61,902 nucleotides of DNA, from positions 1-61,902 of the forward strand of contig JANMMM010000039.1 in assembly GCA_031373225.1 (NCBI GenBank), given 5' to 3'. The notes beneath the pieces are model-generated. The model ran no database searches. It was given only the letters and a program-made list of their open reading frames with translations, and was not told the DNA's origin. Made by a program: the position numbers and the translations under genes. This document shows, one piece after another, positions 2,486 to 21,641 of the stretch (position 1 is the stretch's first letter; every line of letters starts with the position of its first letter). The stretch comes from Phyllobacteriaceae bacterium. GTDB taxonomy: Bacteria; Pseudomonadota; Alphaproteobacteria; Rhizobiales; Rhizobiaceae.

Positions 2486-2523
2486 GGGTCTGCACATGTC
2501 TCTCAGTGGCACCGCTAAAAGCC

Positions 2524-2683: not shown

Positions 2684-2708
2684 GGCGCATGGGGGATGCT
2701 GCCCCGGT

Positions 2709-3185
2709 ATGGTGGCGCTTTTGGTCTGCCTCTCGGTCTTCACCCCGCCCGCCCGCGCCGCCTGCCCTCAGGAGCTTGCCATCTACGAAGACAGCATCGG
2801 CCAATCCCTCGCCTTCACCCCGCCACCCGCTGAGGGCCAGGCCGCCGAGCATGCCTTCTCCATTCGCATCAACGGCCAAGAGCTGCAAGGCGTCGTCATG
2901 TGGAGCGAAAATCCGGACCGGCCGAACGGGATTGTCATGGACCGCTGCCCGGAAGGCGACGTAACGGGCGAAGAGCTTGAGACCTGCACTGTCTGGCAGG
3001 GCGTGATCTATGGCCTCACAAAAGAAGCCACCGCGCCATTCCTCGGCAAGCGGGGCTCGGACCATGCCGAAGCCTTGCTGCTGCCGGATTTTTCGCGCTC
3101 GGTCCAGGCGCACACGTTCAAGAATTCCATGCCCTCGCCGCCCAAGGCGGAGGATGTGTTTAGGATGAAGGCGTGTCAGGAATAG
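2709..3185 (+). CDS. hypothetical small exported protein (158 aa)
   Basis: An in-frame ATG at 2709 gives a signal-peptide-like N-terminus (MVALLVCLSVFTPPARAAC). The longer ORF from 2430 reads through the REP elements and is probably artefactual. I recognised no family. Confidence 0.5.
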   Translation: MVALLVCLSVFTPPARAACPQELAIYEDSIGQSLAFTPPPAEGQAAEHAFSIRINGQELQGVVMWSENPDRPNGIVMDRCPEGDVTGEELETCTVWQGVIYGLTKEATAPFLGKRGSDHAEALLLPDFSRSVQAHTFKNSMPSPPKAEDVFRMKACQE

Positions 3186-3208
3186 GCGCGAAGTGAAGGA
3201 CGAGGCTT

Positions 3209-4615
3209 ATGGCATATGATGTTGCGGTAATCGGCTCCGGCCCCGGCGGCTATGTCTGCGCGATCAAGGCGGCGCAGCTGGGGCTGAAAGTTGCGGTCGT
3301 GGAAAAGCGCGACACGTTCGGCGGCACCTGCCTCAATATTGGCTGCATTCCGTCCAAGGCGCTGCTGCATGCGTCGGAGATGTTTGAAGAGGCGGGGCAT
3401 TCGTTTGATGCGCTGGGCATTGAAATCAATGCGCCGAAGTTGAACCTCGCCAAGATGATGGCGCACAAGGATGCGGTGGTGAAGGCCAATGTCTCCGGCG
3501 TCGCCTTCCTGTTCAAAAAGAACAAGATCGACAGCTTCATCGGCACGGGAACTGTTATGGGTCAGGGCAAGGTCAAGGTGACCGCCGCAGACGGCACGGA
3601 AACGATTGTCGAGACCAAAAACATCGTCATCGCCACCGGTTCGGATGTGGCTGGGATTCCGGGCGTCGAGGTGGCATTTGACGAGAAGACCATCATCTCC
3701 TCCACTGGGGCCATCGCGCTCGACAAGGTGCCGGCCAATCTGGTGGTGGTTGGCGGCGGGGTGATCGGGCTGGAGCTTGGCTCAGTCTGGGCGCGGCTTG
3801 GCGCGAAGGTCACGGTGGTCGAATATCTCGGCGCTGTATTGGGCGGCATGGACGGCGATGTGTCGAAGCAGTTCCAGCGCATGCTGGAAAAGCAGGGCAT
3901 TGTCTTCAAGATGAACTCCAAGGTCACCGCTGTGGCCAAAGCCAAGAAGGGCGCGGGCGTGACATTTGAGCCGGTCGCGGGCGGGGCGGCGGAGACCATT
4001 GACGCTGATGTGGTTCTGGTCGCGACGGGCCGCAAGCCTTTCACAGACGGGCTGGGTCTGGTGGAGGCTGGAATTGTCATGGATAAACGCGGACGTGTGG
4101 ATGTTGACGGCCATTGGCAGACATCCGTGCCCGGCATTTTCGCCATCGGCGATGTGGTCAAAGGCCCCATGCTGGCGCACAAGGCAGAGGACGAGGGCGT
4201 CGCCGTCGCCGAGATCATGGCGGGCCAGCATGGCCATGTGAATTTCGATGTCATACCGGGCGTTGTCTACACCGCGCCGGAAGTCGCTTCCGTCGGCAAG
4301 ACCGAGGAAGAGCTGAAGGCTGCGGGCGTCAATTACAAAGCCGGCAAATTTCCCTTCACCGCCAATGGCCGCGCCCGCGCCATGCAGCACACGGACGGGT
4401 TCGTCAAAATCCTCGCCGACGCCGCCACCGACAAGGTTCTCGGTGTCCATATCATCGGCCATGCCGCAGGCGAGCTGATCCATGAATGCGCCGTGCTGAT
4501 GGAATTCGGCGGCTCGTCCGAGGACTTGGCGCGCACCTGCCATGCGCATCCGACCATGTCCGAAGCCGTGCGTGAGGCGGCGCTGGGGACGTTTGCGAAG
4601 TCGATCCATATCTGA
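3209..4615 (+). CDS. lpdA: dihydrolipoyl dehydrogenase (E3)
   Basis: It has an FAD-binding motif (GSGPGGY), a redox disulfide motif (GGTCLNIGCIPSK) and a C-terminal HAHPT motif. It lies downstream of sucAB. Confidence 0.95.
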   Translation: MAYDVAVIGSGPGGYVCAIKAAQLGLKVAVVEKRDTFGGTCLNIGCIPSKALLHASEMFEEAGHSFDALGIEINAPKLNLAKMMAHKDAVVKANVSGVAFLFKKNKIDSFIGTGTVMGQGKVKVTAADGTETIVETKNIVIATGSDVAGIPGVEVAFDEKTIISSTGAIALDKVPANLVVVGGGVIGLELGSVWARLGAKVTVVEYLGAVLGGMDGDVSKQFQRMLEKQGIVFKMNSKVTAVAKAKKGAGVTFEPVAGGAAETIDADVVLVATGRKPFTDGLGLVEAGIVMDKRGRVDVDGHWQTSVPGIFAIGDVVKGPMLAHKAEDEGVAVAEIMAGQHGHVNFDVIPGVVYTAPEVASVGKTEEELKAAGVNYKAGKFPFTANGRARAMQHTDGFVKILADAATDKVLGVHIIGHAAGELIHECAVLMEFGGSSEDLARTCHAHPTMSEAVREAALGTFAKSIHI

Positions 4616-5064
4616 TGGAGCGCGGCTTCAAAGTGCAGGGCTTGGGCGAGATCGCCATCCGCTGCCTGGACTTTGACGCCATGTGCGCTTTCTATCGCGA
4701 TGTCATCGGTCTTGAGGTGATGAATCTGATGCCGGAGCGCGGCATCGCGTTTTTTCGCATTTCTGATGGCGTAGCCGGACACACGAATGTGCTTGCCCTG
4801 TTCCGCGATGGCGCCGGAACGCGCGACGCGGCGGCGGACGCTTCAAAGCCGCCGCTTGCGGGGCCGCAGTCGTCGCTGCACCACATTGCGCTCAGCTTGC
4901 CATTTGAGGAGCAGGATTCCGTCATGCAATGGTATGAGAGAAAGGGCCTGTCATACACTATTGAGATTTTCGGCTGGGTTGGCTGGCGCGGCGTTTTCGC
5001 GCAGGACCCCGATGGGAACAAAGTGGAGCTGGTGGCGTTCAGCGAAGACTTGAAGGCCAGATGA
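4615..5064 (+). CDS. VOC (glyoxalase/bleomycin resistance/dioxygenase) family protein
   Basis: This is a 149-aa ORF whose ATG overlaps the lpdA stop. It has VOC-like sequence (HIALS, DPDGNKVEL). Confidence 0.6.
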   Translation: MERGFKVQGLGEIAIRCLDFDAMCAFYRDVIGLEVMNLMPERGIAFFRISDGVAGHTNVLALFRDGAGTRDAAADASKPPLAGPQSSLHHIALSLPFEEQDSVMQWYERKGLSYTIEIFGWVGWRGVFAQDPDGNKVELVAFSEDLKAR

Positions 5065-5079
5065 GCGGCAACACGCCAC

Positions 5080-5580
5080 ATGGCGCGGATCTCATCCGTG
5101 TCGGAAACTGCCTGTATTGGAGTATCCGCCATGATACCGGAACAAGTTCTCGCCGGCGCGCAGTTTTCAGATTCTTTCGCCGTTTCCATAACCGGCTCAT
5201 CGCTGGACGCCGTGACCGCGACGCAGCGCGTCGTTCACCGGATTCCAGCGTGGATTTCAGGGCTGAGGCGGCTGCGAAATCTGATTGTCGCGCCGCTGGG
5301 GCTTAAGACCGCGCTGGACAAAAGTATCGGCCCGGACAGGCGCATCGGCACATTTCCGCTTGTGTCCAAATCGCCGCAGCGCGTTGTGGTCGGGCTGGAC
5401 GATAAGCATCTGGATTTCCGTGTGGTAGTGGATGTGGTCAATTTCGAAGACGGACACCAGATGGTGACGGCCACAACCTTTGTGAAAACCCACAATGCGT
5501 TTGGAAGGTTTTATCTCGCCGTGGTGAAACCCTTTCACCGGATCATCGTCCCGGCCATGCTGGCAAAGGTCGGCGGATAG
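5080..5580 (+). CDS. hypothetical protein, possibly DUF2867-like
   Basis: The ORF encodes 166 aa, and the true start may be the internal MIPEQ. The pattern SDSF...LRRLRNLIVAPLGLK resembles DUF2867 proteins, but this is from memory only. Confidence 0.45.
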   Translation: MARISSVSETACIGVSAMIPEQVLAGAQFSDSFAVSITGSSLDAVTATQRVVHRIPAWISGLRRLRNLIVAPLGLKTALDKSIGPDRRIGTFPLVSKSPQRVVVGLDDKHLDFRVVVDVVNFEDGHQMVTATTFVKTHNAFGRFYLAVVKPFHRIIVPAMLAKVGG

Positions 5581-6663
5581 TTATTTCGCCAGCGCCGTCA
5601 GCGTATAGCCCGCCTTGCGGAACAGCTCGACCAAGCCCTTGTCTCCCGGCAAATGCAGCGCGCCGACGGCGATAAAGGCTTTTCCTTCAGCGAGGATTTT
5701 CGCGACCCGCTCTGACATGATTTTGTTACGGGCTTTGACCATGACTTCCTCAAAGTCGCCATAGCTTTTCTCATCCATGCTCGACATGCCCTCCGCCGAC
5801 AGGCTTTTGAGGAAGGGCATGATCAGCCCGGCGCGGCCTTCGGCGTAGAGCGCGATCATGGTTTCCATCACATCGTCCATCTTGGCGCCGAGCGCCACGG
5901 TTTCAATGAGGCTCTGCATTTGCAGGTCCATCGGCACAGAATTCATGGCGTTGAGCTGCTCGGCGATGGTCTCCAGCCCGTCGATCTTCTTGCCCGCCGC
6001 TTCCGCGTCACGCGCCAGCTTGATGTCGAGAAACGGCGCGCCGGCCTTTTTGCGCTGCTGTTCGCAGGCGGGCAGCACAATCATCGCCGAAATCATCCAG
6101 GGCCGCATTTTGTTGACGGTCACTAGCGGAATGCCGCGCGCGGTCAGGCCCTTGTTGAGTTTTTCGGCCTCGTCCTTGCTGAGCAGCGAGGTCAGCGTCG
6201 TCTGATCAGTGAACATGATCATGCCGGGCTGCGACAGCATGGTCATGGCCGCCCTTTTCTCGTCGAGAATGTCCGTCGATTCGATAACTACGGCGTCCGC
6301 GCTGTCAAATGCCGTCTTGGCTTCCGGCGTCAGGTCAATGACGCGCGGATCGGTCATGTGCATGGTGCCGAACAGATATGACGGCTTCAGGCCGGATTTT
6401 TCAATCTTCCACAGCCGCGCCCCGCTGTTGGGCGTTGCGGCGGCTTCCGTCTCCAGTCTGGCGTAAGCGGCGGGATCGTTTTTCTGCATCGCGGCTACGA
6501 GGTTTTCGCCGGTGCAGACAATCTCCTGCGCGTCCGCCCTGGACGAGGCCAGCAGCAGCACCGCGAGGAAACTGGCGAAGAACAGCAAATTGACCAGCGC
6601 CATGAGGCGAAGTGCAGATTCGGGGCGGCGGATGAGGTTGAGCATGCCAAAAATTGAGATCAT
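5581..6663 (-). CDS. TraB/GumN family protein (exported)
   Basis: It has an N-terminal hydrophobic signal, a GTMH motif (YLFGTMHMTDPRV) and a C-terminal AVGALHLPG motif typical of TraB/GumN. The start codon is uncertain. Confidence 0.75.
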   Translation of the reverse strand: MISIFGMLNLIRRPESALRLMALVNLLFFASFLAVLLLASSRADAQEIVCTGENLVAAMQKNDPAAYARLETEAAATPNSGARLWKIEKSGLKPSYLFGTMHMTDPRVIDLTPEAKTAFDSADAVVIESTDILDEKRAAMTMLSQPGMIMFTDQTTLTSLLSKDEAEKLNKGLTARGIPLVTVNKMRPWMISAMIVLPACEQQRKKAGAPFLDIKLARDAEAAGKKIDGLETIAEQLNAMNSVPMDLQMQSLIETVALGAKMDDVMETMIALYAEGRAGLIMPFLKSLSAEGMSSMDEKSYGDFEEVMVKARNKIMSERVAKILAEGKAFIAVGALHLPGDKGLVELFRKAGYTLTALAK

Positions 6664-6722
6664 CCGGACATTTTACCGCGCAAAGTGACGAGAAAGCGTT
6701 AATGCCGCCCGCGCAATTTGCC

Positions 6723-7415
6723 TCAGTAGGTCGCCCTGCCACCGGAAAGATCAAACACAGCCCCGGTGGAGAAAGAGCATTCCTCGCTCGCCAGCCAGCA
6801 GACGAGGCTGGCAATCTCGTCCAGCCTGCCGGTGCGGCCCATCGGGATTTTTGAAAGCATGAAGTCAATATGGCTCTGCGGCACTTGGTCAAGAATGGGC
6901 GTGCGGATCACAGCCGGGGTGACGCAATTGACAGTGACGCCTGTTTTCGCCAGCTCTTTGCCGAGCGATTTGGTGAGGCCGATGACGCCCGCCTTTGAGG
7001 CGGAATAGGCCGAGGCGTTCGGATTGCCCTCCTTGCCGGCGATGGAGGCGATGTTGACGATGCGGCCAAAATTCTGCGCCGACATCAGCGGCGCGACGGC
7101 GCGGCATGTGTGGAATGTGCCTGTGAGGTTGATGTCCAGAACCCGCTGCCACTCTTCGATTGGGTATTCGGCGAGCGGCACGGTTGGCCCGGCAATGCCC
7201 GCACAATTGACGAGTATATCCACACCGCCAATGGCGCTCAATGTTTGCTTCAGTGCGTTCTCTACGGAGGCGTAGTCGGATACGTCCGTCTTCAGGCCGC
7301 CATTCACATCCCAGACCGCCACCTCTCCGCCCTCGGCTGTGATCCGCGCCGCAATAGCTGCGCCAATGCCTGAAGCTCCGCCCGTTATTACCGCCCTCCT
7401 GCTCGTGAAACGCAT
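6723..7415 (-). CDS. SDR family oxidoreductase
   Basis: It has a Rossmann motif (TGGASGIGAAIA), an NCAGI motif and the catalytic YSASK motif. The start is set at ATG 7415 (MRFTSRRAVITGG). Confidence 0.85.
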   Translation of the reverse strand: MRFTSRRAVITGGASGIGAAIAARITAEGGEVAVWDVNGGLKTDVSDYASVENALKQTLSAIGGVDILVNCAGIAGPTVPLAEYPIEEWQRVLDINLTGTFHTCRAVAPLMSAQNFGRIVNIASIAGKEGNPNASAYSASKAGVIGLTKSLGKELAKTGVTVNCVTPAVIRTPILDQVPQSHIDFMLSKIPMGRTGRLDEIASLVCWLASEECSFSTGAVFDLSGGRATY

Positions 7416-10171: not shown

Positions 10172-11335
10172 ATGTCGCTGATCTTTGCCTTGCTCATTTT
10201 ACTGATGGTTTCAGGCTCCTTCGTTCTTGGCCGCAGCCGCGCCGGCGCGCTTCAGTCTTCGGCCGGACTTCACTCGCTGCCTTCCTATCATGGCATGCTG
10301 CTGGCGCTTGTGGGCCTGCTTGCCGCGCTTCTGGTCTTTGCGCTGGGGCTGCGCTTTATTCCGGACTATATTCCATGGGTTTCGCTCGCTGCCGGTTTTG
10401 CAGCCGTTGGGGTGTTTTATCAGAAAATCTCTCCTGATTACCGCGCGCGGAACCTGTTTGAGCGAATTACCCTTTGGATACTTGCCGCCTGCGCCACGTT
10501 CGCCATTCTGGTGACAATCGGCATTTTGTTCTCGGTTCTGTTCGAGTCTCTGCGCTTCTTCAGTGAAGTCTCGCCGCTGCATTTTCTGACCAGTCTGCAA
10601 TGGTCGCCAACTTCCGATCCCGCCTCGTTCGGCATTGTGCCGCTGGTCGCAGGAACCTTGCTCATCACAGTTATCGCCATCGCGATCGCCGGCCCTCTCG
10701 GCCTTTTCGGCGCGATCTACATGGCCGAATATGCCTCGCCGCGAATCCGCAGCATCGCCAAACCGCTTCTGGAAATTCTGGCTGGCGTGCCCACCGTTGT
10801 GCTCGGTTTCTTCGCCGCGCTCACAGTCGCGCCGCTGATAAGGGGCTGGGGCGAAAGTTTTGGCCTTTCAGTGTCATCTGAGTCGGCGCTCGCGGCAGGC
10901 GTGGTCATGGGCATGATGATCGTGCCGCTGATCTCCTCCCTGTCGGATGACATCATCAACGCCGTGCCGCAGTCGCTGCGCGACGGGTCTTATGCGATGG
11001 GCGCGACGAAATCCGAGACGATCAAGAAGGTCGTGCTGCCTGCGGCGCTGCCAGGCATTGTCTCCGCCTTTATCCTCGCCATTTCGCGCGCCATCGGCGA
11101 GACGATGATTGTGGTGATGGCCGCCGGCCTTGCCGCCAATCTGACGTTTAATCCGCTGGCTGCCGTGACGACCATCACCGTGCAAATCGCGACGCTCCTT
11201 GTCGGCGACCAGGAGTTTGATTCCGCCAAGACGCTGTCCGCTTTCGCGCTCGGCCTCATCCTCTTCATCTTCACCCTTGTCCTCAACTATATCGCACTGC
11301 GCTTCGTGCAGAAATACCGGGAGCAATATGACTGA
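10172..11335 (+). CDS. pstC: phosphate ABC transporter permease
   Basis: It is a multi-TM protein with an ABC permease EAA-like loop (SRAIGETMIV) and lies between pstS and pstA. Confidence 0.88.
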   Translation: MSLIFALLILLMVSGSFVLGRSRAGALQSSAGLHSLPSYHGMLLALVGLLAALLVFALGLRFIPDYIPWVSLAAGFAAVGVFYQKISPDYRARNLFERITLWILAACATFAILVTIGILFSVLFESLRFFSEVSPLHFLTSLQWSPTSDPASFGIVPLVAGTLLITVIAIAIAGPLGLFGAIYMAEYASPRIRSIAKPLLEILAGVPTVVLGFFAALTVAPLIRGWGESFGLSVSSESALAAGVVMGMMIVPLISSLSDDIINAVPQSLRDGSYAMGATKSETIKKVVLPAALPGIVSAFILAISRAIGETMIVVMAAGLAANLTFNPLAAVTTITVQIATLLVGDQEFDSAKTLSAFALGLILFIFTLVLNYIALRFVQKYREQYD

Positions 11336-12812
11336 GTTCACGATGAAAGGCGGCGCCGAGCTCGTCGCCAAACGCTACCGCGCTGAACGCCGGTTCAAAG
11401 CGCTGGGACTGGCTTCACTTGCGGTAACCGGCCTGTTTCTTGGCTTCCTGATTGTTGACATTATGACGAAGGGCTTCCCGGCCTTTTTCGAACACACAGT
11501 CAAAATGGACGTGATGATCGACCCAGCCAGGATCGACGCGAACGCAATCGCCAAGGGCGACTTTCAGGGCCTTGCCAAGGATGCGCTGCGCGACGCTTTC
11601 CCGGGCGTCAGCGACCGAAGCGGCAGGAAGCAGCTGTCCGCAATTCTTTCCTCTGGCGCTGGCAGCGCGCTGCGGGACTTGGTCATTGCAGATCCAAAGC
11701 TGATTGGGACGAAAGTCAATGTCCCGCTGCTTCTGTCGGGTGACGCAGACCTTTATCTCAAGGGTTATCAGGCCAACCTCGGCAAAAATCCGGGTTCTGC
11801 GGACCTGACCATTTCGGAAGACGGAGACGCTTACAATTTGACCACAAGCGCGCCCTTGGCCGCGGGCCAAATCGTGCGCGCCAATGGCGGGGCGTTCAAG
11901 GTGTTGAGCGCGGGCGATGGCTCAGCAAGGGCGGAAGCCATGGAAAAGCCGGTCAGCATGGAAACAGCGCTAGCGGGAAAATGGGACAGCGTCTCTTTCA
12001 GCACCACCGAGTCCGACCGCCGTTCGTCGGATCGCGAAATTCTCTGGCTCGAGCAGCTGAATGACAATGGCCAGATAGCCAAAGGATTTGCCTGGCGATT
12101 CTTTTCATCAGGCGATTCGCGTGAGCCGGAACTTGCCGGCGTACGCGGCGCGCTGGTTGGCTCACTGCTTGTGATCGCCGTAACGCTTTCCATCTGCCTG
12201 CCCATAGGCGTGGGAGCGGCGCTCTATCTTGAGGAGTTCGCGTCGAAGAACCGTTTCACTGATCTGATCGAAGTCAACATCAACAACCTCGCCGCGGTGC
12301 CCTCCATCATTTTCGGCCTGCTCGGTCTTGCGGTTTTCCTGTCTTTCTTCGGGCTGCCGCGCTCGGCGCCTTTGGTCGGCGGTCTGGTGCTGGCGCTGCT
12401 TGTGCTGCCGACGATCATCATCGCCTCCCGCGCCGCCTTCCGTTCGGTGCCGCCTTCCATCAAGGAAGCGGCGCTCGGCGTCGGCGCGTCGCATCAGCAG
12501 GCGGTGTTCCACCATGTGCTTCCACTCGCCGTTCCCGGCATTCTGACCGGCACAATTTTAGGCATCGCCCGGGCCTTCGGAGAATCCGCGCCTCTCCTTA
12601 TGATTGGCATGATCGCCTTCATCGTCGATGTGCCGAAGGGCTTCACGGATGCGGCAACCGTCATGCCGGTGCAGATTTTCCTTTGGTCCGATCTTCCCGA
12701 GATCGGGTTCCAGTCTAAGACCGCCGCAGCCATCATCGTGCTGCTCGTTGTCCTGTTTTGCTTGAACGCTGTCGCAATTTACTTGCGCAAGCGCTTCGAA
12801 CGCCGTTGGTAG
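11328..12812 (+). CDS. pstA: phosphate ABC transporter permease
   Basis: ATG 11328 overlaps the pstC stop (11333..11335). The long N-terminal periplasmic loop is typical of rhizobial PstA. It has a permease core with [10 protein letters not shown]. Confidence 0.88.
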
Positions 12813-12829
12813 TTGAAAGAGAGTCCGCC

Positions 12830-13681
12830 ATGGATGCCATGACAAAAAGAGGGGCTTCAAACGTGAAGACCAAAACCGTTGAAACCCCAATGAAGACGGA
12901 ATTGCCTGCAAAGGCCGCAATGCCCGCGATAAAAATCAAGGCGCGCAATGTCGATGTCCACTATGGCGAAAAGCAGGCCATCAAAGACCTGTCGATCGAC
13001 ATCCCGGCGCGCTCGGTCTCTTCTTTCATCGGCCCTTCGGGCTGCGGCAAGTCGACGTTTCTGCGTTCCATCAACCGGATGAACGACACGATCCCCACCT
13101 GCAAGGTCAAGGGGCTGATCGAAATCGACGGCAAGGACATCTATGACAAGGATCTCGACGTGGTGCAGCTGCGCGCCAATGTCGGCATGGTGTTTCAGAA
13201 GCCCAATCCGTTTCCGAAATCCATCTTCGAAAATGTCGCCTATGGCCCGCGCATACATGGCCTTGCCAAGGGAAAAACCGATCTTGAGGAAATGGTCGTG
13301 TCAGCACTAAAGAAGGCCGGCCTCTTCGAAGAGGTCAAAGACCGGATCAGCCAGCCGGGGACCAGCCTGTCCGGCGGCCAGCAGCAGCGGCTGTGCATCG
13401 CCCGCGCCATAGCGGTGAACCCTGAAATCATCCTGATGGACGAACCCTGTTCTGCGCTCGATCCGATCGCCACCGCCAGGATCGAAGAGCTGATTGACGA
13501 ATTGCGCGAGAATTTCACCATCGTCATCGTCACCCATTCGATGCAGCAGGCGGCGCGCGTCTCGCAGCGCACGGCCATGTTCCACCTTGGCATCCTGGTC
13601 GAGGAGGGGCCGACCGAGCTGATGTTCTCCAATCCCACCCAGAAGCGCACTCAGGACTACATCACCGGCCGCTTCGGCTGA
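12830..13681 (+). CDS. pstB: phosphate ABC transporter ATP-binding protein
   Basis: It has Walker A (GPSGCGKST), the ABC signature (LSGGQQQR) and Walker B (ILMDEP). The start is set at ATG 12830. Confidence 0.95.
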
Positions 13682-13703
13682 TCATTTGCAAAGGAACCGA
13701 GCG

Positions 13704-14420
13704 ATGCTCGCACAACATACCGTCCGCTCCTACGATGAAGAGCTGAAATATCTGGCGCAGAAGATCGCCGAAATGGGCGGCCACGGCGAGCGCATGGTGG
13801 ACCAGTCCATCAAAGCGCTGGTCGAGGCGGATAACAAGCTTGCCAAGCAGGTGGTGCTTGATGACCAGTTCATGGACGACACACAGCGTGAAATCGACGA
13901 GAAGGCGATCATGATAATCGCCAAGCGTCAGCCCATGGCGTCGGACCTACGCGAAATCATCGGCGCGATCCGCATTTCCGCTGATCTTGAGCGGGTTGGC
14001 GACATGGGCAAGAACATCGCCAAGCGTAACTCCGCTGTCTCTGAAACCGCGCATCCGCTACGGGTGTTCCGGGGTCTTGAAAATCTGGCGCAGCTGGGGC
14101 TGACCCAGCTGAAAGACGTGCTTGACATCTATGCGTCACGCTCCGTTGACCAGCTCGACCGGGTGCGAAACAGGGATGAGGAGATTGATCAGGTCTACAC
14201 CTCGCTGTTCCGCGAGCTTCTGACCTATATGATGGAGGACCCGCGCAACATTTCCTCCTGCACGCATCTCCTGTTCTGCGCCAAAAACATCGAGCGCATC
14301 GGCGACCATGCGACCAACATTGCCGAGACGATCTATTACATTGAGACAGGCCGGCATATGACGCTCGACCGGCCCAAGGAAGACAAAAGCCACCGCGTTG
14401 TGCTTGAGGAGCCGAAGTGA
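13704..14420 (+). CDS. phoU: phosphate signalling complex protein PhoU
   Basis: It shows two PhoU repeats with E/DxxxD motifs (ADLERVGD, NIERIGDH) and lies between pstB and phoB. Confidence 0.92.
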   Translation: MLAQHTVRSYDEELKYLAQKIAEMGGHGERMVDQSIKALVEADNKLAKQVVLDDQFMDDTQREIDEKAIMIIAKRQPMASDLREIIGAIRISADLERVGDMGKNIAKRNSAVSETAHPLRVFRGLENLAQLGLTQLKDVLDIYASRSVDQLDRVRNRDEEIDQVYTSLFRELLTYMMEDPRNISSCTHLLFCAKNIERIGDHATNIAETIYYIETGRHMTLDRPKEDKSHRVVLEEPK

Positions 14421-14422
14421 GA

Positions 14423-15115
14423 ATGGCGATCAGTCCGCGCATTGCCGTCATTGAGGACGAAGAGGCGCTGAGCATTCTGCTGCGCTATAATCTGGAGGCC
14501 GAGGGCTGGCAGGTCTCGACGATCCTGCGCGGCGATGAGGCGGAGGAGGCACTTCGCCACCAGCCGCCTGACCTCATCATTCTCGACTGGATGCTGCCAG
14601 GTGTGTCGGGCATCGAGCTGTGCCGGCGCTTGCGCAACAAGACCGAAACCAGCCGCGTCCCCATCATCATGCTCACGGCGCGCGGCGAAGAAAGCGAGCG
14701 CGTGCGCGGACTTGCGACGGGAGCGGACGATTATGTGGTCAAGCCCTTTTCAACGCCGGAGCTGATGGCACGTGTCAAAGCGCTGTTGCGCCGCGCAAAG
14801 CCGGAGGTCATCGCTTCTCAGCTGAAAGTCGCCGAGATCGAGCTTGACCGCGACGCACACCGCGTCCGCCGCGGTGCGAGAGAGTTGAAACTCGGTCCGA
14901 CTGAATTCCGGCTGTTGGAATTCCTGATGCGGGCCCCTGGCAGGGTGTTCTCCCGCGCCCAGCTTCTGGACGGTGTCTGGGGCGAAAACATCTATGTCGA
15001 TGACCGCACGGTGGACGTCCATGTCGGACGCTTGCGCAAGGCCGTCAACCGAGGCAAGGAGGCTGACCCAATCCGCACCGTGCGCGGCGCCGGCTACTCA
15101 ATTGAGCACCCGTAG
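14423..15115 (+). CDS. phoB: phosphate regulon response regulator (OmpR family)
   Basis: It has a receiver domain (IAVIEDE, LIILDWMLPG, KPF) and an OmpR-type winged-helix C-terminus (TVDVHVGRLRK, RTVRGAGY). Confidence 0.92.
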   Translation: MAISPRIAVIEDEEALSILLRYNLEAEGWQVSTILRGDEAEEALRHQPPDLIILDWMLPGVSGIELCRRLRNKTETSRVPIIMLTARGEESERVRGLATGADDYVVKPFSTPELMARVKALLRRAKPEVIASQLKVAEIELDRDAHRVRRGARELKLGPTEFRLLEFLMRAPGRVFSRAQLLDGVWGENIYVDDRTVDVHVGRLRKAVNRGKEADPIRTVRGAGYSIEHP

Positions 15116-15183
15116 CGGCAGCCTGTGCGAACTCTGTCTCCCGCTTGCTGCCGAAGACTTGCCGTGTTCGAAACGATCTATAC

Positions 15184-16218
15184 TTACGCCGCCTTCAGCT
15201 TCGGCTTTATCAACCCCCGCGCCACCAGCAGCTCGGCAATCTGCACCGCGTTCAGCGCCGCGCCTTTGCGCAGATTGTCCGAGACGATCCACATGGCAAG
15301 CCCGTTCTCCACCGTGATATCCTCGCGGATGCGGGAAATGTAGGTGGCGTCTTCGCCGGCGCTTTCGACCGGGGTCGCGTAGCCGCCGTCCTCATGACGG
15401 TCGATGACCAGGCACCCCGGAGCGTTCTCGAGCAGCGCCCGCGCCTCTTCCGGCGAGATCGGCTTTTCGAATTCGATGTTCACCGCCTCGGAATGGCCGA
15501 TGAACACCGGCACGCGCACGCAGGTCGCCGTCAGCTTGATTTTCGGATCGAGCATCTTCTTGGTCTCGGCGACCATCTTCCACTCTTCCTTGGTGTAGCC
15601 ATCCTCCATGAACACATCGATATGCGGGATGACATTGAAGGCAATGCGCTTGGTGAACTTCTTGGTGACGACCGGATCGGCGACAAACACGGCGCGGGTT
15701 TGCGTGAACAATTCGTCCATGCCTTCCTTGCCCGCGCCCGACACCGACTGATAGGTCGAGACGACAACGCGCTTGATAATTGCGGCATCATGCAAGGGCT
15801 TCAACGCCACGACCAATTGGGCGGTCGAGCAGTTTGGATTTGCGATGATGTTGCGCTTCGTAAAACCGGTAATCGCGTCCGGGTTCACTTCCGGCACGAT
15901 CAGCGGCACGTTGGAATCGTAGCGGAAGGCCGACGAGTTATCGATGACGACACAGCCCTGCGCCGCAATCTTCGGCGACCAGATCTTTGAGGTCTCACCG
16001 CCCGCCGACATCAGGCAGATGTCGGTGTCGGAGAAATCAAACTGGTCAAGCACTTTGACCTTCAGCGTCCGGTCCCCGTAAGAAACCTCGGTGCCGAGCG
16101 AGCGCCTTGACGCCAACGCCACAACCTCGTCGGCCGGAAAGCCGCGCTCTTCCAGAATGTTCAGCATCTCACGCCCGACATTTCCCGTCGCCCCGGCGAT
16201 TGCCACCTTGAAACCCAT
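15184..16218 (-). CDS. asd: aspartate-semialdehyde dehydrogenase
   Basis: It has the N-terminus MGFKVAIAGATGNVG and the active-site region IANPNCSTAQ. The length is 344 aa. Confidence 0.95.
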   Translation of the reverse strand: MGFKVAIAGATGNVGREMLNILEERGFPADEVVALASRRSLGTEVSYGDRTLKVKVLDQFDFSDTDICLMSAGGETSKIWSPKIAAQGCVVIDNSSAFRYDSNVPLIVPEVNPDAITGFTKRNIIANPNCSTAQLVVALKPLHDAAIIKRVVVSTYQSVSGAGKEGMDELFTQTRAVFVADPVVTKKFTKRIAFNVIPHIDVFMEDGYTKEEWKMVAETKKMLDPKIKLTATCVRVPVFIGHSEAVNIEFEKPISPEEARALLENAPGCLVIDRHEDGGYATPVESAGEDATYISRIREDITVENGLAMWIVSDNLRKGAALNAVQIAELLVARGLIKPKLKAA

Positions 16219-16539
16219 TGTCTTAAATCCTTTTGCCGCTCCCCGCCCAAACCCGTCACTCAGACGTGATTTTCACTCACCCCGCCAGCCCGGGGGAGTG
16301 TCGGGAAGGCTGAGGCGGTCAATCCTGTTTGGTGGTTTTTTTTGATGTGGTTTTAGCGGAGAAAAGGCGGGCATGGCTGCGGGCGGGGCCCGAAGCGGAC
16401 AGCTCGACAATGGCTTGGCGGAAGCCGCGCATGGTTTTTCCTTTTCTGAGCGGTGCTCATACTGGAAATTGGATAAGAGTCAAACCGCCTAAAGGAAAAC
16501 CAGGTAGCCAACGATGGACAAGTCGCCCCAACTGCTTCC

Positions 16540-18807
16540 TCAGCGACCCCACACAGTGCTGTAGCGCTCCAAAACGTTGACAAAGTCAGCCTCACCTGCA
16601 GGGGTAATTGTTCTAGCGCCGATGCTAACTGGCGCGTGTATAAGTGAATACAATTCCCTCGATACCTCCTCCCTAATTGACTCGATGAGCCTAAAGGGTC
16701 CGGAGGCCAGAAAGATATTTGCTAACTCCATATATCTCCCCTTCTTAACATTCACCGCACTCAAACTTTTTTTAACTTGACTCTCCTGACGGAAATTTAC
16801 CTCATTTAATATCCTGACGCTCGAAACAGAATTCACAAATTTCGCTGTGATCCAGTTGATCAAATTCAAGTCTCCGGGCTCGTAAGACTCAATCATTACG
16901 AAAGGAGCAACCTTCTCCAAATTACCCTCAACAACAAATGGTCCGATTGGCGCCCTCATCAAAGCCAAAGATAAGTACGCGATGTCTTTTACATACTTAT
17001 CGAGAATATAAACCAATTTCGGCAGCGGTCTAACTCTCATCCTCATGAGCTCTCGATCAAATTGAAAATACTCTCCGTACAGTGAAATAACATCACTCTC
17101 AGCAAGTTCAATAATTTTCCATCTCAGAATTTCTTCATTGTAACCAAAGAGTCTCCACAAAATATAGCAAATTTCTGCAACACTGACTGGCTGGTAATTC
17201 TTAATCACCTCTCTCTTTGCCTCTATTGCCCTAACCAGTTGTATTATACGCAACGTCAGCGCTATTTCATTTCCAGTATTTACAAATTTCCCACCAAACG
17301 CACTATCATCATACGGATAATCAAATATAGAGGGAATCAATCTGTTGTCAAACAGAGGAATATCGGCAATTCTTTGGGTAAATTTTCCGGCATTCGTGCT
17401 ATAATAATAATACTTCTGCGGATACTTAAATCCTCCTTTCGTCATTGACTCCACAATTTTGTAGGGTGCCAAGACCCCCACTTGCTTTCTCACGCTCATA
17501 ATGTAGTCGTAATACGCCAGTTGAATTGTCTGCATTTGGGCTCGCCTGTTGGGCCCAAAGGCCCTGTGAAGCGCAGCAGCATAATGCTCACTCGTTTCAG
17601 AACGCTCTAAGAACTCCACGAACCCGTCAAAGTGGAGAGGCCAGTCGCTCGTCATCCACTTTTTGCTGGGCGCAAGTCTGGCCACCTCGCTAATTAAAAA
17701 CGCTCTCCTCTGGCTTACAATTTCAACGAGGTCAGATGGTCCGATTTCAAACGTTCGAACAGACTCAACTTTCTTATAGGGGCTTGTTCGTGAAAAACTT
17801 TCTAACGTTGAAGTTCTCATTACTGCGAGCAAGACAAACCCAACCAAGTCAGTGCTGAGGCCGAGAGAAGCGGAGTCACCACAAAGCTTCTCAAATTTTC
17901 GGATTGCTGAACGTGTTGACTCAAGTTTATCAAATCCATCTAAAACAACTACAAACCGAAAGCCCTTGAGCAAAAGGTAAGAATATACTGCCGCGCCTAT
18001 AACCCTAGGAACTAGCCTCTCGTCAAGAGGTTGCTCAGCAGTTTTTCTCCAGAATACATTTTTCATATTCTCGAGAGTATTTGTAAGATTTAGACGAGCT
18101 TCTTGAGATTCCATCCGACTTACATAATCTCGTAAATATTGATCAAGTCCACGTTTTGCTATATCAATATTGGATATCCTATACAATCTTGATTTAGAAT
18201 GGTAATATCTATAAACAATTTTAGAAATTTGTGCGTAAATCCAAGAAAGCAGATCGTTATTTGGAGGAAAGTCTTTGACTAAGTCTAATCGTACCCATAT
18301 AACTGACTGTCTGTCGAGTTTATCGATATATTGCGCCAAAATATAGTTTAAGAAAAAAGTTTTTCCAGAGCCACGGGGACCGTGAACAATAAATGTCCGC
18401 TGAGAAAGATGATTTAAATCAGCACCCCCCTTTGCAGTTTGCTTCGAAAGCTGCCATTGAAAATTCGCTTCTGTAACTACTTGGTCAACAAAAGTGTCAA
18501 CAGCCTTTGAACTGCGATTCACAAAATTTTCTGAATCGGCTTGTTCTTCGATTGCGCGATTAGAAGAAAAAACATAGCTATCCTTAATTGCACTTGTATT
18601 TTCTGGATCACTAGGATTTGAGGTTATGTGCCCAAGCCTCTTTTGCACATGATCCTCCCGTGGCTCTATGTGGTGCGGCCTAAAACTCAATTCATTTCTA
18701 AAGGGATGGCGCGCCACAGGGTCGGATCGATCCGAGCTTAATTTCGTCAGCATGTCACTGTGCTTCATTGGAGACTTCAGCAGCGAGTCTATTTCGGCCT
18801 TATTCAT
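16540..18807 (-). CDS. large P-loop NTPase (755 aa) with ORC/Cdc6-like AAA+ or STAND-like architecture; function unknown
   Basis: Walker A is VHGPRGSGKT (nt 18358..18381, aa 143-150). Walker B is FVVVLDGFD (aa 285-293). A sensor-like LLAVMRTS motif and a lid-like VRTFEIGPSDLVEIVSQRR motif are present. There is a winged-helix-like segment (VSVAEICYILWRLFGYNEEILRWKIIELAESDVISL). The polar N-terminal ~140 aa and the C-terminal ~170 aa match no family I recognise. Confidence 0.8.
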   Translation of the reverse strand: MNKAEIDSLLKSPMKHSDMLTKLSSDRSDPVARHPFRNELSFRPHHIEPREDHVQKRLGHITSNPSDPENTSAIKDSYVFSSNRAIEEQADSENFVNRSSKAVDTFVDQVVTEANFQWQLSKQTAKGGADLNHLSQRTFIVHGPRGSGKTFFLNYILAQYIDKLDRQSVIWVRLDLVKDFPPNNDLLSWIYAQISKIVYRYYHSKSRLYRISNIDIAKRGLDQYLRDYVSRMESQEARLNLTNTLENMKNVFWRKTAEQPLDERLVPRVIGAAVYSYLLLKGFRFVVVLDGFDKLESTRSAIRKFEKLCGDSASLGLSTDLVGFVLLAVMRTSTLESFSRTSPYKKVESVRTFEIGPSDLVEIVSQRRAFLISEVARLAPSKKWMTSDWPLHFDGFVEFLERSETSEHYAAALHRAFGPNRRAQMQTIQLAYYDYIMSVRKQVGVLAPYKIVESMTKGGFKYPQKYYYYSTNAGKFTQRIADIPLFDNRLIPSIFDYPYDDSAFGGKFVNTGNEIALTLRIIQLVRAIEAKREVIKNYQPVSVAEICYILWRLFGYNEEILRWKIIELAESDVISLYGEYFQFDRELMRMRVRPLPKLVYILDKYVKDIAYLSLALMRAPIGPFVVEGNLEKVAPFVMIESYEPGDLNLINWITAKFVNSVSSVRILNEVNFRQESQVKKSLSAVNVKKGRYMELANIFLASGPFRLIESIREEVSRELYSLIHAPVSIGARTITPAGEADFVNVLERYSTVWGR

Positions 18808-19435
18808 CGACGCTCCAATCTTTGAGTAGTGACTTTAACTGACTTAATGCTGTAGCGACAGTGAAGGGACCTTCAATCAGAGACAACTCAAGGTTTTTTT
18901 CAATCAAACTGACTAATTTGCTGAGTGTCACTGGTAGGCAGGGTAATCCAATCGAAGAACCTCCATTCTTCATTGGCAAAACACGTTGATTTTTGAATTT
19001 CATCGGAATTTTTGATGTCTCGATACCCGGAATGTAAACACAGGGGAGTTCAATTTGTTCTTCGGCTCTTACAGCGCGTATTACGGGTTCTCCCACAATT
19101 ACGCTTAAAGACTTAAAAATCTCACCGTGTGCGAATGCGCCTCTAGGGATAAAATCTTTGTCAATCAAAATATCTTGCGCTTCTCTTATGCATTGGAAGT
19201 AGGTGGAGAAGGTATCACTGTCGTATTTTTCAGATTCAAAACAAGTTATAAAAATACTATCAGATAAGACTTGAACTACGAAATTGTTTTTTTTGGTAAT
19301 TTTCTCTATTTCATGAACGCAGTCAGCGAGGTCTTTATATATTTTGGCAGCGCCTCTGGATCTTACCAATGCGCTGAATCCATATATGTCGATGTAGACG
19401 AGCCAGGCATTGCCCTTTTGCATTTGATTGGACAT
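18800..19435 (-). CDS. minimal class III nucleotidyl cyclase-like (cyclase homology domain / Palm fold) protein, 211 aa
   Basis: By eye it aligns to CHD motifs. LVYIDIYGFSAL aligns with FxDIxGFT (metal Asp D16). QVLSDSIFITCF aligns with the GDxxxA strand (D59). PRGAFAHGEIF aligns with RIGIHTG. GEPVIRAVRAEE aligns with G..VNxAxR (Arg123 kept, Asn replaced by Ile119). Its stop codon overlaps the downstream gene's start. Confidence 0.7.
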   Translation of the reverse strand: MSNQMQKGNAWLVYIDIYGFSALVRSRGAAKIYKDLADCVHEIEKITKKNNFVVQVLSDSIFITCFESEKYDSDTFSTYFQCIREAQDILIDKDFIPRGAFAHGEIFKSLSVIVGEPVIRAVRAEEQIELPCVYIPGIETSKIPMKFKNQRVLPMKNGGSSIGLPCLPVTLSKLVSLIEKNLELSLIEGPFTVATALSQLKSLLKDWSVDE

Positions 19436-19494
19436 TGGTTCCTTGCATCCCCTCCGAGGTGTCAGCCCCTTATTTTTTGATATATTTTTTGCTT

Positions 19495-19523
19495 ATCTTC
19501 GGCACGATTTTGTATTCCGTCAA
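19495..19523 (-). promoter_or_regulatory. possible sigma70-type promoter for the island operon
   Basis: On the minus strand there is TTGACG (19523..19518), a 17-nt spacer, then GAAGAT (19500..19495). An AAGGA Shine-Dalgarno sits a few nt before ATG 19435. This is a weak sequence match only. Confidence 0.25.
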
Positions 19524-19748: not shown

Positions 19749-21641
19749 ATGGCAGACGCAGTAATGGCGGGCGCACCAACCCGCGGCATGACGAGAGAGG
19801 AAAAGAAGGTCATCTTCGCCTCCTCGCTCGGCACCGTTTTCGAATGGTACGATTTTTATCTGTACGGATCACTCGCCGCCTTCATCGGCGCGGCGTTTTT
19901 CTCGCAATATCCGGAAGCCACGCGCAACATTTTCGCACTGCTGGCGTTTGCCGCCGGCTTCCTCGTGCGCCCGTTCGGCGCGCTGGTGTTCGGCCGGCTC
20001 GGCGATCTGGTCGGCCGCAAATACACATTCCTCATCACCATCGTCATTATGGGCCTGTCAACATTCCTGGTCGGTCTCCTGCCCGGCTCGGCGACCATCG
20101 GCATTCTGGCGCCCATTATCCTGATCGGCCTGCGCATGCTGCAGGGTCTGGCGCTCGGCGGTGAATATGGCGGCGCGGCGACCTATGTCGCCGAGCATTC
20201 GCCTCCCGGCAAGCGCGGCTATTACACCTCGTTCATTCAAACCACGGCGACGCTCGGCCTGTTCCTGTCTCTGGTCATTATCCTCGCGCTGCAAACCAAT
20301 ATGAGCAAAGAAGCGTTCGCCGACTATGGCTGGCGCATTCCGTTCCTGCTTTCCGCCATACTGCTCGGCGTGTCCGTCTGGATTCGTCTGCAGATGAATG
20401 AATCGCCGGTGTTCCAGCAGATCAAGGATGAGGGCAAACAGTCAAAAGCGCCGCTGTCGGAAGCCTTCGGCCAGTGGAAAAATGCCAAGATCGCCATTCT
20501 GGCTTTGCTGGGCGCGACTGCCGGTCAGGCGGTGGTCTGGTACACCGGCCAGTTCTACGCCCTGTTCTTCCTGACGAACGTGCTGAAGGTGGACGGCGCT
20601 TCGGTAAACAAAATGGTGGCGGTTTCGCTTCTGCTCGGCACCGGGTTCTTCATTGTGTTTGGCTGGCTCTCGGATAAAATCGGCCGCAAGCCGATCATCA
20701 TGGCGGGTCTCGCTTTGGCGATCCTGACTTACTTCCCGCTGTTCAAAATGCTGACGGAAGCCGCCAATCCGGCGCTTGCAACGGCACAGGCAAGCTCAAT
20801 CGCAACTGTGACAGCAGACCCCAAGGATTGTAACTTCCAGTTTAATCCGACCGGCACGAAGAAGTTCACCACGTCATGCGATATCGCCACGGCCTTCCTG
20901 ACCCGCAACTCGGTGCCTTACAAGCTCGTGGACGGCGCAGCGGGCTCTGTTGCTTCCATTGATCTCGGCGGCGTCAAGGTCGAGTCCTATGACGCGGTCA
21001 AGGCTGGCGACAAGGCGGCGGGCATGAAGGGCGCGTTTGAAAAGAGCGTCAATCTCGCCATGCAGACCGGCGGCTATCCGCTGGTGCGCGATGCGGTCAA
21101 GGTCACTGGCTCCAAGCTTGCGGCGCTGGTTGCTGCAAATCCGGAAGCCAAACTCGACCAGGCGGCGATTGAAGCTGGTGAAAAGACCATGACCAAGGTT
21201 GCCGACGCTGTGACAGCCAAGCTGCTCACCGCTGACGAGGCCAAGGCGATCACCGACGCCGAAGTGCCGGTCTATTCCGTCAAAGGCGCCGGCGCGTTCA
21301 AGATGGTGGCCGACGCCGCAGCGGTGAACTGGACCAGGATCATCGCGATCCTGACCCTGCTCGTCATCTACGTGACCATGGTCTACGGCCCGATCGCCGC
21401 ATGGCTCGTGGAAATGTTCCCGACCCGCATCCGCTACACCGGCATGTCGCTGCCTTACCACATCGGCAACGGCTGGTTCGGCGGCCTGCTCCCGGCGACG
21501 GTCTTCGCCATGAGCGCGGCCAAGGGCGACATCTACTACGGCCTCTGGTACCCGATCATCATCGCCGCGACGACGCTCGTCATTGGCATCCTGTTCGTCA
21601 AGGACAACAAAAAGGATCATCTGCTAAAAGACATGGATTGA
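19749..21641 (+). CDS. MFS transporter, metabolite:H+ symporter (MHS/ProP-like) family, with a large extra loop domain
   Basis: The N-terminus is FEWYDFYLYGSLA, with FGRLGDLVGRK and EMFPTRIRYTG motifs. It has 12 predicted TM segments. A ~190-aa hydrophilic insert (aa ~336-528) sits between TM9 and TM10. Confidence 0.85.
   Translation: MADAVMAGAPTRGMTREEKKVIFASSLGTVFEWYDFYLYGSLAAFIGAAFFSQYPEATRNIFALLAFAAGFLVRPFGALVFGRLGDLVGRKYTFLITIVIMGLSTFLVGLLPGSATIGILAPIILIGLRMLQGLALGGEYGGAATYVAEHSPPGKRGYYTSFIQTTATLGLFLSLVIILALQTNMSKEAFADYGWRIPFLLSAILLGVSVWIRLQMNESPVFQQIKDEGKQSKAPLSEAFGQWKNAKIAILALLGATAGQAVVWYTGQFYALFFLTNVLKVDGASVNKMVAVSLLLGTGFFIVFGWLSDKIGRKPIIMAGLALAILTYFPLFKMLTEAANPALATAQASSIATVTADPKDCNFQFNPTGTKKFTTSCDIATAFLTRNSVPYKLVDGAAGSVASIDLGGVKVESYDAVKAGDKAAGMKGAFEKSVNLAMQTGGYPLVRDAVKVTGSKLAALVAANPEAKLDQAAIEAGEKTMTKVADAVTAKLLTADEAKAITDAEVPVYSVKGAGAFKMVADAAAVNWTRIIAILTLLVIYVTMVYGPIAAWLVEMFPTRIRYTGMSLPYHIGNGWFGGLLPATVFAMSAAKGDIYYGLWYPIIIAATTLVIGILFVKDNKKDHLLKDMD

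Follow-up and report, generated by a model that had tools for sequence, protein, structure and literature searches.

The 61,902-nt window analysed here, contig JANMMM010000039.1 of a Phyllobacteriaceae bacterium (GenBank assembly GCA_031373225.1), carries two adjoining minus-strand genes that, judged from their sequences, form a well-defined, conserved and wholly unannotated two-gene family. Gene 1 (211 amino acids (aa); 18800..19435) encodes a standalone, divergent protein of the class III nucleotidyl-cyclase fold, and gene 2 (755 aa; 16540..18807) a P-loop NTPase that lies between the STAND and ORC/Cdc6 families. An immune function is plausible for the pair, and its chemistry is possibly unusual. 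Our favoured reading, which we hold with middling confidence, is that the two genes are a horizontally mobile conflict module that acts like a split STAND immune receptor, probably against phages or mobile elements.

The genes lie between asd (15184..16218, minus strand; Semialdhyde_dh/dhC, E = 9e-57) and a major facilitator superfamily (MFS) transporter gene (19749..21641, plus strand; Sugar_tr/MFS_1), in the arrangement proposed by a preliminary description of this DNA, whose coordinates and junction we verified. They overlap by 8 nt (18800..18807, minus strand; ATGAATAA), a stretch that holds the stop of gene 1 and the start of gene 2. Read along the minus strand, the junction is AAAGATTGGAGCGTCGATGAATAAGGC: gene 1 ends ...GAT TGG AGC GTC GAT GAA TAA, the gene 2 ATG lies within GATGAA, and a GGAG Shine-Dalgarno sequence is placed 6 nt 5' of that ATG; AAGGAA is found 5' of the gene 1 ATG. 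The block had also been described as AT-rich relative to its flanks. Measured over the two genes, GC content is 0.417, against 0.588 in the rest of the window, and this is the sole AT-rich block in 62 kb, every other 2-kb segment having a GC content of at least 0.53. The island (16600..19500, no strand assigned; GC about 0.42 versus 0.59), with edges at ~16.6 kb and ~19.5 kb, contains these two genes only. No tRNA, Rfam element or integrase was found at its borders, and a search for a sister genome free of the island, by way of an identical Asd protein, found none on record. Composition, both here and in 15 of 15 other loci in which the pair is more AT-rich than its flanks (difference in GC −0.005 to −0.20), supports the earlier suggestion of horizontal acquisition.

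Hidden Markov models of both families were run on all open reading frames of the fetched loci. Wherever a gene 1 homologue was followed by enough downstream sequence, a gene 2 homologue lay directly downstream on the same strand, which held for about 21 distinct loci; the only two exceptions were contigs that end inside gene 1. Gene order and strand are constant, and at the junctions the two genes overlap by as much as 83 nt or stand up to 52 nt apart. Distant members conform: in Rhizobium sp. RU36D and in two metagenomic lineages, gene 1 is followed by a full-length gene 2 homologue of 747-835 aa (hhalign probability 100%, E = 1e-85 to 1e-107 against gene 2). Across 16 loci with divergence of up to about 80%, the pairwise distances of the two proteins are strongly correlated (r = 0.925, Mantel permutation p ≤ 2e-4); the genes have therefore been inherited as a unit, with no swapping of partners. 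The pair is thus more than a chance arrangement, because both reading frames have conserved homologues in the same order at about 21 independent loci, and the prediction that it would recur in other genomes is borne out.

No third gene or effector is conserved across these loci. At two of them (L004, 458-841; L014, 5531-5884) a hydrophobic protein of about 120 aa is encoded directly upstream of gene 1; these two proteins are 38% identical to each other, belong to no Pfam family and may be an occasional membrane accessory or effector.

Gene 1 gave no match in Pfam, NCBIfam or PADLOC when scanned as a single sequence, and a word-indexed protein search with it returned the query itself only. The family became visible only once homologues were gathered from positions upstream of gene 2 relatives. 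The profile built from them recovered about 17 clear members, all annotated as hypothetical and with no Pfam domain, and a HMMER search of 1.84 billion cluster representatives gave 126 matches at E ≤ 1e-30 and 631 at E ≤ 1e-10. The 150 representatives listed are 146-290 aa long, hence standalone proteins, with no fusion among them. The family comprises hundreds of clusters at 50% identity, all hypothetical and unseen by the Pfam cyclase model, and defining it would improve their annotation.

Against the PDB, the gene 1 family profile matched Rv1625c/Cya (E = 8.8e-6) and the beta subunit of soluble guanylyl cyclase (sGC; 8.5e-5), with an alignment to class III cyclases that spans about 160 residues and includes all core motifs. 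The Pfam model PF00211 (Guanylate_cyc) stayed below threshold, matching 1 of 17 members at E = 0.14. An AlphaFold2 (AF2) model of gene 1 had a predicted local distance difference test score (pLDDT) of 92.2 and a predicted template-modelling score of 0.89, and its top 50 Foldseek matches in the PDB were all class III cyclases (E about 5e-8, probability 1.00, TM-score about 0.6), among them Cya2, CyaC, Rv1625c, CyaB, sGC, tmAC and the Pycsar cUMP synthase 7r65. The last of these (PycC) ranked 37th (E = 1.8e-6), below many adenylyl and guanylyl cyclase structures. In the BFVD library of viral structures, the best matches were likewise cyclase-domain proteins, and GGDEF proteins scored far worse. 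We rejected an assignment to GGDEF, Cas10 or mCpol on these grounds, since GGDEF proteins appeared only in BFVD and with weak E values. The model and the profile matches agree with the earlier call of gene 1 as cyclase-like: its predicted structure marks it as a genuine, if very divergent, protein of the class III cyclase fold, with a cyclase homology domain (CHD) core at about residues 6-165. A family-specific helical hairpin (residues 171-205) follows the catalytic core; it keeps G189 and P190 and, in most members, a Trp at position 197. We use 'cyclase' for gene 1 as a statement about this modelled fold, not about a demonstrated activity.

A distant relative of gene 1 in Chryseobacterium (P0027; L031, 8001-8771), 256 aa long and matching the family profile at E = 8e-7, belongs to a paa operon for phenylacetate catabolism, where a PaaZ-like gene comes next; no NTPase gene accompanies it. 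On account of this operon setting and the missing partner we did not count it as a member of the paired family; it suggests a separate, possibly metabolic branch of divergent cyclase-fold proteins.

Conservation within gene 1 was counted over 156 family representatives, with cyclase equivalents taken from the profile alignment to Rv1625c; all motif coordinates are on the minus strand. The first metal-binding aspartate, D16, and the G19-F20 phosphate loop lie in WLVYIDIYGF (residues 11-20; 19376..19405), in which W-x-x-Y-x-D16-x-Y-G-F aligns with FADIVGF of Rv1625c; D16 is present in 100% of representatives and G19/F20 in about 90% or more. LSDSIFI (residues 57-63; 19247..19267) holds the second metal-binding aspartate, D59, and its F-S-D59-S aligns with SGDSYM(V) (D59 100%, S58 92%). 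The Arg-Gly of RGAFAHG (residues 98-104; 19124..19144) is the counterpart of the cyclase motif LRVGLATG: L-R98-G-G aligns with LRVG, position 98 is R or K in 100%, G99 is kept in 100% and G104 in 99%. By comparison with the class III family, we take R98 to be the position of the phosphate-binding Arg. Further along, GEPVIRAVRAE (residues 115-125; 19061..19093) is the counterpart of WGDAVNVASRME, on which G115-x-P-V-x-R-A-x-x-x-E125 aligns with G115, A121 and E125 kept, and KNGG (residues 156-159; 18959..18970) corresponds to the KGKG hairpin (VKGKG in Rv1625c). K156 is K or R in about 90% and is presumably the Lys that contacts the triphosphate. Conservation of about 88-100% extends to G115, A121, E125, P131, P136 and P168.

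Other parts of the canonical site are lost. The transition-state Asn/Arg pair of the VNxAxR motif is not kept: position 119 is I, V or L, and position 123, the cyclase Arg, is R in 26%, K in 20% and otherwise E, S, Q or A. The base-specifying pair is absent too, with Y or F in 66% at position 55 (K296 of Rv1625c) and L, I or V at position 112 (D365). Of the six residues canonical for class III catalysis, the family keeps only two. The altered site hints at a product or chemistry other than cAMP, cGMP, cCMP or cUMP. Because D16, D59, G19-F20, R98, G99, G104, G115, E125 and K156 are conserved, we consider this an active site for nucleoside triphosphate (NTP) and metal binding rather than a dead domain, and gene 1 probably turns over an NTP, given that its metal and triphosphate ligands are kept.

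These residues also bear on the idea that gene 1 generates no signal and is instead a macromolecule-modifying nucleotidyltransferase or a nucleotide-binding regulatory subunit, leaving the NTPase as the real actor, for example as a DNA-binding, ORC-like ATPase that interferes with foreign DNA. The four of six canonical residues that are not conserved (a hydrophobic Asn position, a variable Arg and aromatic or aliphatic base positions) would fit, as would the ORC/Cdc6 resemblance and winged helix of gene 2 and the catalytically inactive cyclase domains known in conflict systems (PMC7159879). We nevertheless think it unlikely: the invariant pair of metal-binding Asp residues, together with R98 (R/K in 100%) and K156 (R/K in about 90%), points to NTP catalysis, and every structural neighbour of gene 1 is a true cyclase.

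In gene 2, single-sequence scans gave sub-threshold Pfam matches (AAA_14, AAA_16, NACHT, ORC-CDC6-like and KAP), Sll1717 in NCBIfam (1.4e-8) and, in PADLOC, matches to the P-loop only (mad8, 0.0018; PDC-M16A, 0.0023). Over the NTPase segments of 16 homologues, AAA_16 was matched in 16/16 (best E = 6.6e-7) and NACHT in 12/16 (best 5.5e-7); the window's own gene 2 falls under both gathering cut-offs (AAA_16, 22 versus 32.6 bits; NACHT, 21.6 versus 26.7). The NTPase motifs noticed earlier are all present, and the alignment of these 16 homologues shows GxxGxGKT, hhhhDGxD and MRT/TRT to be conserved. Walker A, GPRGSGKTF (residues 143-151; 18355..18381, minus strand, as are all gene 2 coordinates), has invariant G146, G148, K149, T150 and F151 and aligns with the P-loop of ORC4; Walker B, FVVVLDGFD (residues 285-293; 17929..17955), has invariant D290, G291 and D293. 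K149, like D16 and D59 of gene 1, had been singled out for mutation in the preliminary description, and all three proved to be real, invariant positions. A sensor-1-like MRT (MRT/TRT in the family; R331 at least 90% conserved) and a lid-like motif FEIGPSDLVEIVSQRR, with an invariant, sensor-2-like R367, together span 17701..17829; we assign both by analogy to the STAND hhhTTR motif and the Cdc6/Orc1 lids. With Walker A, Walker B, R331 and R367 kept, gene 2 is probably an active NTPase.

The remainder of gene 2 consists of N-terminal (1-130) and C-terminal (about 390-755) regions that are unique to the family; neither matched a solved structure or a Pfam family. Profiles of the separate regions run against the PDB returned only the ORC4 P-loop (E = 0.004) and a designed-armadillo match, which we discarded as a repeat artefact because its individual stretches were insignificant. 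The N-terminal motif RLGHITSNP (residues 57-65; 18613..18639), of family form R-L-G-H-I-x-x-N-P, has an invariant G59 and R57, L58 and P65 at no less than 90%, and is a candidate docking element for gene 1. At about residues 515-600 (17008..17265) a winged-helix-like domain is predicted, with the pattern H-(b)-H-H-E-wing-E in the AF2 model (pLDDT about 72-91). The C-terminal region as a whole (residues 385-755; 16543..17655) carries, in the 16-sequence alignment, the invariant residues N420, R422, Q429, E453, D487, R520, Q523, R618, W652, K656 and N659, and is a candidate sensor or ligand-binding part. We detected no cyclic nucleoside monophosphate (cNMP)-binding, TIR, nuclease, protease, CARF, SAVED or transmembrane domain in gene 2 (Pfam, NCBIfam and PADLOC), and no LuxR/GerE or TPR domain.

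The AF2 model of gene 2 (pLDDT 68 overall, about 80 in the NTPase core and about 72-91 for residues 510-600) had Apaf-1 as its top Foldseek match (E = 6.8e-5, probability 0.91), with ORC4, ORC1 and Cdc6 at E = 1e-4 to 1e-3 and probability 1.00; CED-4, RdrA, MalT and NLRs followed. Alignments to the ORC/Cdc6 proteins, which have a C-terminal winged helix, were long, but gene 2 differs from them in having about 150 residues between lid and winged helix and a further 150 after it. We place its NTPase tentatively between STAND and ORC/Cdc6, which score equally. A distant relative of gene 2 (P0009; L009, 57-2972; 790 aa) matches the NTPase and part of the C-terminal region only, and is preceded by a non-homologous hydrophobic protein of 178 aa and not by a cyclase-fold gene; the NTPases of this family may therefore have more than one kind of upstream partner.

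The pair occurs in a Hyphomicrobiaceae metagenome-assembled genome (MAG), in Rhizobium and in MAGs of Pseudomonadales, Desulfatibacillum and Desulfomonilaceae. The loci span MAGs of the Alpha-, Gamma- and Deltaproteobacteria. Scanning 185,579 species-representative genomes with a degenerate motif turned up only 6 loci, and we accordingly regard the distribution as rare and patchy. None of the isolate-genome member accessions (WP_084368343, WP_084368342 and others) is mentioned in searchable papers.

This distribution bears on whether the pair could serve physiological signalling, as a split regulator of the actinobacterial Rv0386 type in which the NTPase, under the control of a ligand, regulates transcription or binds DNA by its winged helix and gene 1 makes cAMP, cGMP or a related messenger for the host. 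Rv0386 is a single polypeptide of CHD, AAA_16 NTPase, TPR and LuxR helix-turn-helix, and the order here of CHD, AAA_16-like NTPase and DNA-binding domain runs parallel to it. AAA_16 is also the most consistent Pfam match of gene 2 (16/16), gene 2 has a winged-helix-like domain, and many loci, the present one included, have housekeeping neighbours. Those neighbours are not conserved, however, and offer no obvious local regulon; six loci among 185,579 genomes and a consistently foreign composition are atypical of housekeeping signalling; LuxR/GerE and TPR domains were not detected; and gene 1 is missing the substrate and transition-state residues of cAMP and cGMP cyclases. We judge this explanation fairly unlikely.

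Neighbouring genes point in more than one direction. On a JGI metagenome contig (L001), a complete QatABCD system lies directly upstream of the pair (QatA, E = 1e-255), and further neighbours across the loci, some of defence or mobile-element type, are PDC-S04, PDC-S06, HEC-06, type II methyltransferases, dCTPase, HD-CE/ParB-CE, Abi_C, HicAB, serine recombinases or resolvases, and Replic_Relax. Ordinary metabolic genes are found as well. The L001 pair is the closest relative of the window's pair that we found (gene 2 45% identical), and a few genes downstream of it are a weak match to Peptidase_C14, a caspase-like protein, and a LuxR/LuxI pair; the neighbours on this contig lie at 1718-6739 and 13468-18033.

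Could the pair instead replicate or maintain a small mobile element, as an ORC/Cdc6-like initiator with a palm-fold accessory? The structural similarity of gene 2 to ORC/Cdc6, the foreign composition, and the two loci that adjoin a Replic_Relax gene and a serine recombinase, respectively, would agree with this. Yet the island holds two genes only, with no integrase, origin-type repeats or tRNA target; no homologue was found in 72,556 plasmids or 50,697 phage genomes; and the palm protein is cyclase-like, not primase- or polymerase-like. We consider such a role highly improbable.

Under the reading that we favour, a split STAND-like receptor, the C-terminal region of gene 2, including the winged helix, would sense an invader-derived cue and set off nucleotide-dependent oligomerisation of gene 2. 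Gene 1, made in fixed ratio to gene 2 by translational coupling and probably docked on its conserved N-terminal region, would thereby be brought together in several copies, and induced proximity would switch it on to convert an NTP into a (cyclic) nucleotide product and pyrophosphate. That product could be a second messenger, or its synthesis could drain the NTP pool and so halt the infected cell. Class III cyclases build their active sites across a dimer interface and need to dimerise, so oligomerisation of gene 2 would be a natural switch for a docked gene 1. The order of CHD gene and NTPase gene mirrors the effector-NTPase-sensor order of STAND receptors and that of cyclase-STAND fusions, which are predicted to be immune proteins, and it has a parallel in the cyclase domains of other NTPase conflict systems. 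Contact between the two proteins, what triggers the pair, what it makes, which partner controls the other and any protection from invaders are inferred.

The same components could be wired in the opposite sense, as in the Panoptes and Hailong systems, with gene 1 constitutively making a nucleotide that keeps a toxic gene 2 NTPase off until the signal is taken away by phage sponges or by anti-defence enzymes that degrade nucleotides, which frees the NTPase. A minimal palm-fold synthase translationally coupled to one partner is the Panoptes layout, there is no separate effector gene, and the invariant Arg/Lys/Asn/Gln set in the C-terminal region of gene 2 could bind a phosphate-containing ligand. 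Gene 1, however, is like class III cyclases and not like mCpol, Cas10 or GGDEF proteins, gene 2 has no transmembrane, S-2TM-beta, CARF or other known nucleotide-sensor domain, and neither CBASS nor Pycsar co-localises with the pair in the sampled loci; we regard this inverse guard as quite unlikely. To a similarly small degree we credit a self-contained synthase, receptor and effector with new chemistry, in which gene 1 would either nucleotidylate a target or produce a non-canonical nucleotide, the Arg/Lys/Asn/Gln-rich C-terminal domain of gene 2 would read the product, and gene 2 would use its winged helix to act directly on DNA, for instance to stop the invader from replicating. If true, this would be a defence mechanism that dispenses with a separate effector and has no counterpart among described systems.

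Several points weigh against the split-receptor model of defence. Plasmids (72,556), phage genomes (50,697) and IMG/VR contigs yielded no homologue. The missing Asn/Arg pair and base-specifying residues make cyclase chemistry uncertain for gene 1, and neither protein has a recognisable downstream effector or nucleotide-receptor domain (Pfam, NCBIfam, PADLOC and PDB profiles), which raises the question of how an output is delivered. The gene 2 model is of moderate quality (pLDDT 68, from a 7-sequence alignment), with Foldseek E values of about 1e-4 and a low global TM-score. It is from genomic context that we infer a defence role, and because several loci, this window included, lie amid housekeeping genes, the defence-island signal is anecdotal.

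Weak matches to phage protein families of unknown function and similar size were found in PHROGs: phrog_23933 for the gene 1 protein (240-aa profile, E = 1.4e-6) and phrog_14719 for the gene 2 protein (833-aa profile, E = 1.2e-6). Relaxed tblastn found no phage genome that carries either of them.

Searches of PADLOC, NCBIfam and Pfam matched the pair to no named system, which upholds part of the earlier claim that it is undescribed. The claim has to be qualified, because a 2026 preprint (bioRxiv 10.64898/2026.08.12.744502) notes immune-associated cyclase-STAND fusions and Kaur et al. 2020 (PMC7159879) describe cyclase domains, some of them inactive, in other NTPase conflict systems (vWA-MoxR/VMAP). 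The preprint's 'immune clade 1' comprises cNMP cyclases that carry a fused NACHT or AP-ATPase domain and for which an immune role is predicted, and it lists 'cyclases linked to STAND NTPases' among uncharacterised immune lineages; the general theme of a cyclase linked to a STAND NTPase was thus anticipated. The fusions are predicted immune or signalling switches, experimentally uncharacterised as defence. Like them and the Rv0386-type proteins, the present family places a class-III-fold domain ahead of an AAA_16/NACHT-like NTPase, here upstream of it rather than N-terminal to it. It differs in that the parts are separate genes at all loci, gene 1 lies beyond the reach of PF00211 and has neither the Asn/Arg nor the base-specifying residues, and gene 2 has unique termini with no TPR, LuxR or known sensor repeats.

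Pycsar and Pucsar share with the pair a standalone class-III-fold cyclase in a two-gene operon, and 7r65 is a structural neighbour of gene 1; their partner, however, is a cNMP-binding TIR or transmembrane effector, whereas here it is a 755-aa P-loop NTPase. PADLOC gave no Pycsar match for the pair, the gene 1 family had no sequence-profile match to PycC, and gene 2 matched no cNMP_binding, TIR or transmembrane-effector model at E ≤ 1. We rejected membership, since the defining partner domains are not in gene 2 and no third gene is conserved. CBASS was excluded likewise, given that gene 1 has the class III cyclase fold and not that of a CD-NTase (Pol-beta fold) and that PADLOC found no CBASS match. 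Panoptes (PMC12657218) is defined by an mCpol (Cas10/GGDEF-type) synthase, OptS, and an S-2TM-beta or CARF-transmembrane effector, OptE. Like the pair, Panoptes couples a minimal palm-fold synthase of nucleotides (about 200 aa) to a single partner in a two-gene operon, but by Foldseek gene 1 is near class III cyclases only, and gene 2 is a soluble NTPase in place of a 2TM/S-2TM-beta or CARF-transmembrane effector; with no Cas10, GGDEF or mCpol protein in the Foldseek top 50, and neither transmembrane nor CARF domains in gene 2, the pair does not belong there. The preliminary description had already set it apart from Pycsar and CBASS on the missing cNMP-binding, TIR, nuclease, protease and transmembrane domains of gene 2, a distinction that holds and extends to Panoptes.

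The vWA-MoxR/VMAP systems (PMC7159879) are likewise centred on an NTPase, with a cNMP-cyclase-fold domain, sometimes inactive, as signal or effector module. They have three genes, not two, and a MoxR NTPase rather than a STAND/ORC-like one; as the pair has no vWA, MoxR or VMAP domain and no conserved neighbours, we rejected this assignment as well. With the Avs and bNACHT STAND receptors gene 2 shares a predicted Apaf-1/CED-4-like NTPase core and, if gene 1 is the effector, the effector-NTPase-sensor order. In contrast to them, the effector would be a polypeptide of its own, the NTPase resembles ORC/Cdc6 just as closely, and no known Avs sensor or effector domain is present, PADLOC matches being at P-loop level only.

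The pair departs from the described cases in that the parts are always split, that the cyclase-fold protein has an altered site and lies past the reach of Pfam, that the termini of the NTPase are novel and that no effector or receptor domain is recognisable. If validated, the pair would add a new architecture to nucleotide-based bacterial immunity, an NLR-like ATPase controlling a minimal enzyme of the class III cyclase fold, and would give a first handle on the 'cyclase linked to STAND' lineages so far predicted by comparative genomics only.

Two pairs of short repeats bracket the island in the window. A T-rich direct repeat of 20 nt (16338-16357, TTTTTTGATGTGGTTTTAGC; 19473-19492, TTTTTTGATATATTTTTTGC; 80% identical) has one copy in the intergenic region on either side, and may be the scar of an insertion or fortuitous. 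An inverted repeat of 14 nt without mismatches (16089-16102, CGGTGCCGAGCGAG; 19823-19836, CTCGCTCGGCACCG) has one arm in asd and the other in the MFS gene; by a rough estimate, about 0.03 such pairs are expected by chance in 4.1 kb. These short repeats may all the same be chance occurrences. Beyond asd are PhoU and a PhoB-type response regulator (11328-15112), both confirmed by Pfam, and the open reading frames at 11199-13681 could be part of a pst phosphate-transport operon. This pho/asd context looks like ordinary housekeeping and places the island in a core chromosomal region.

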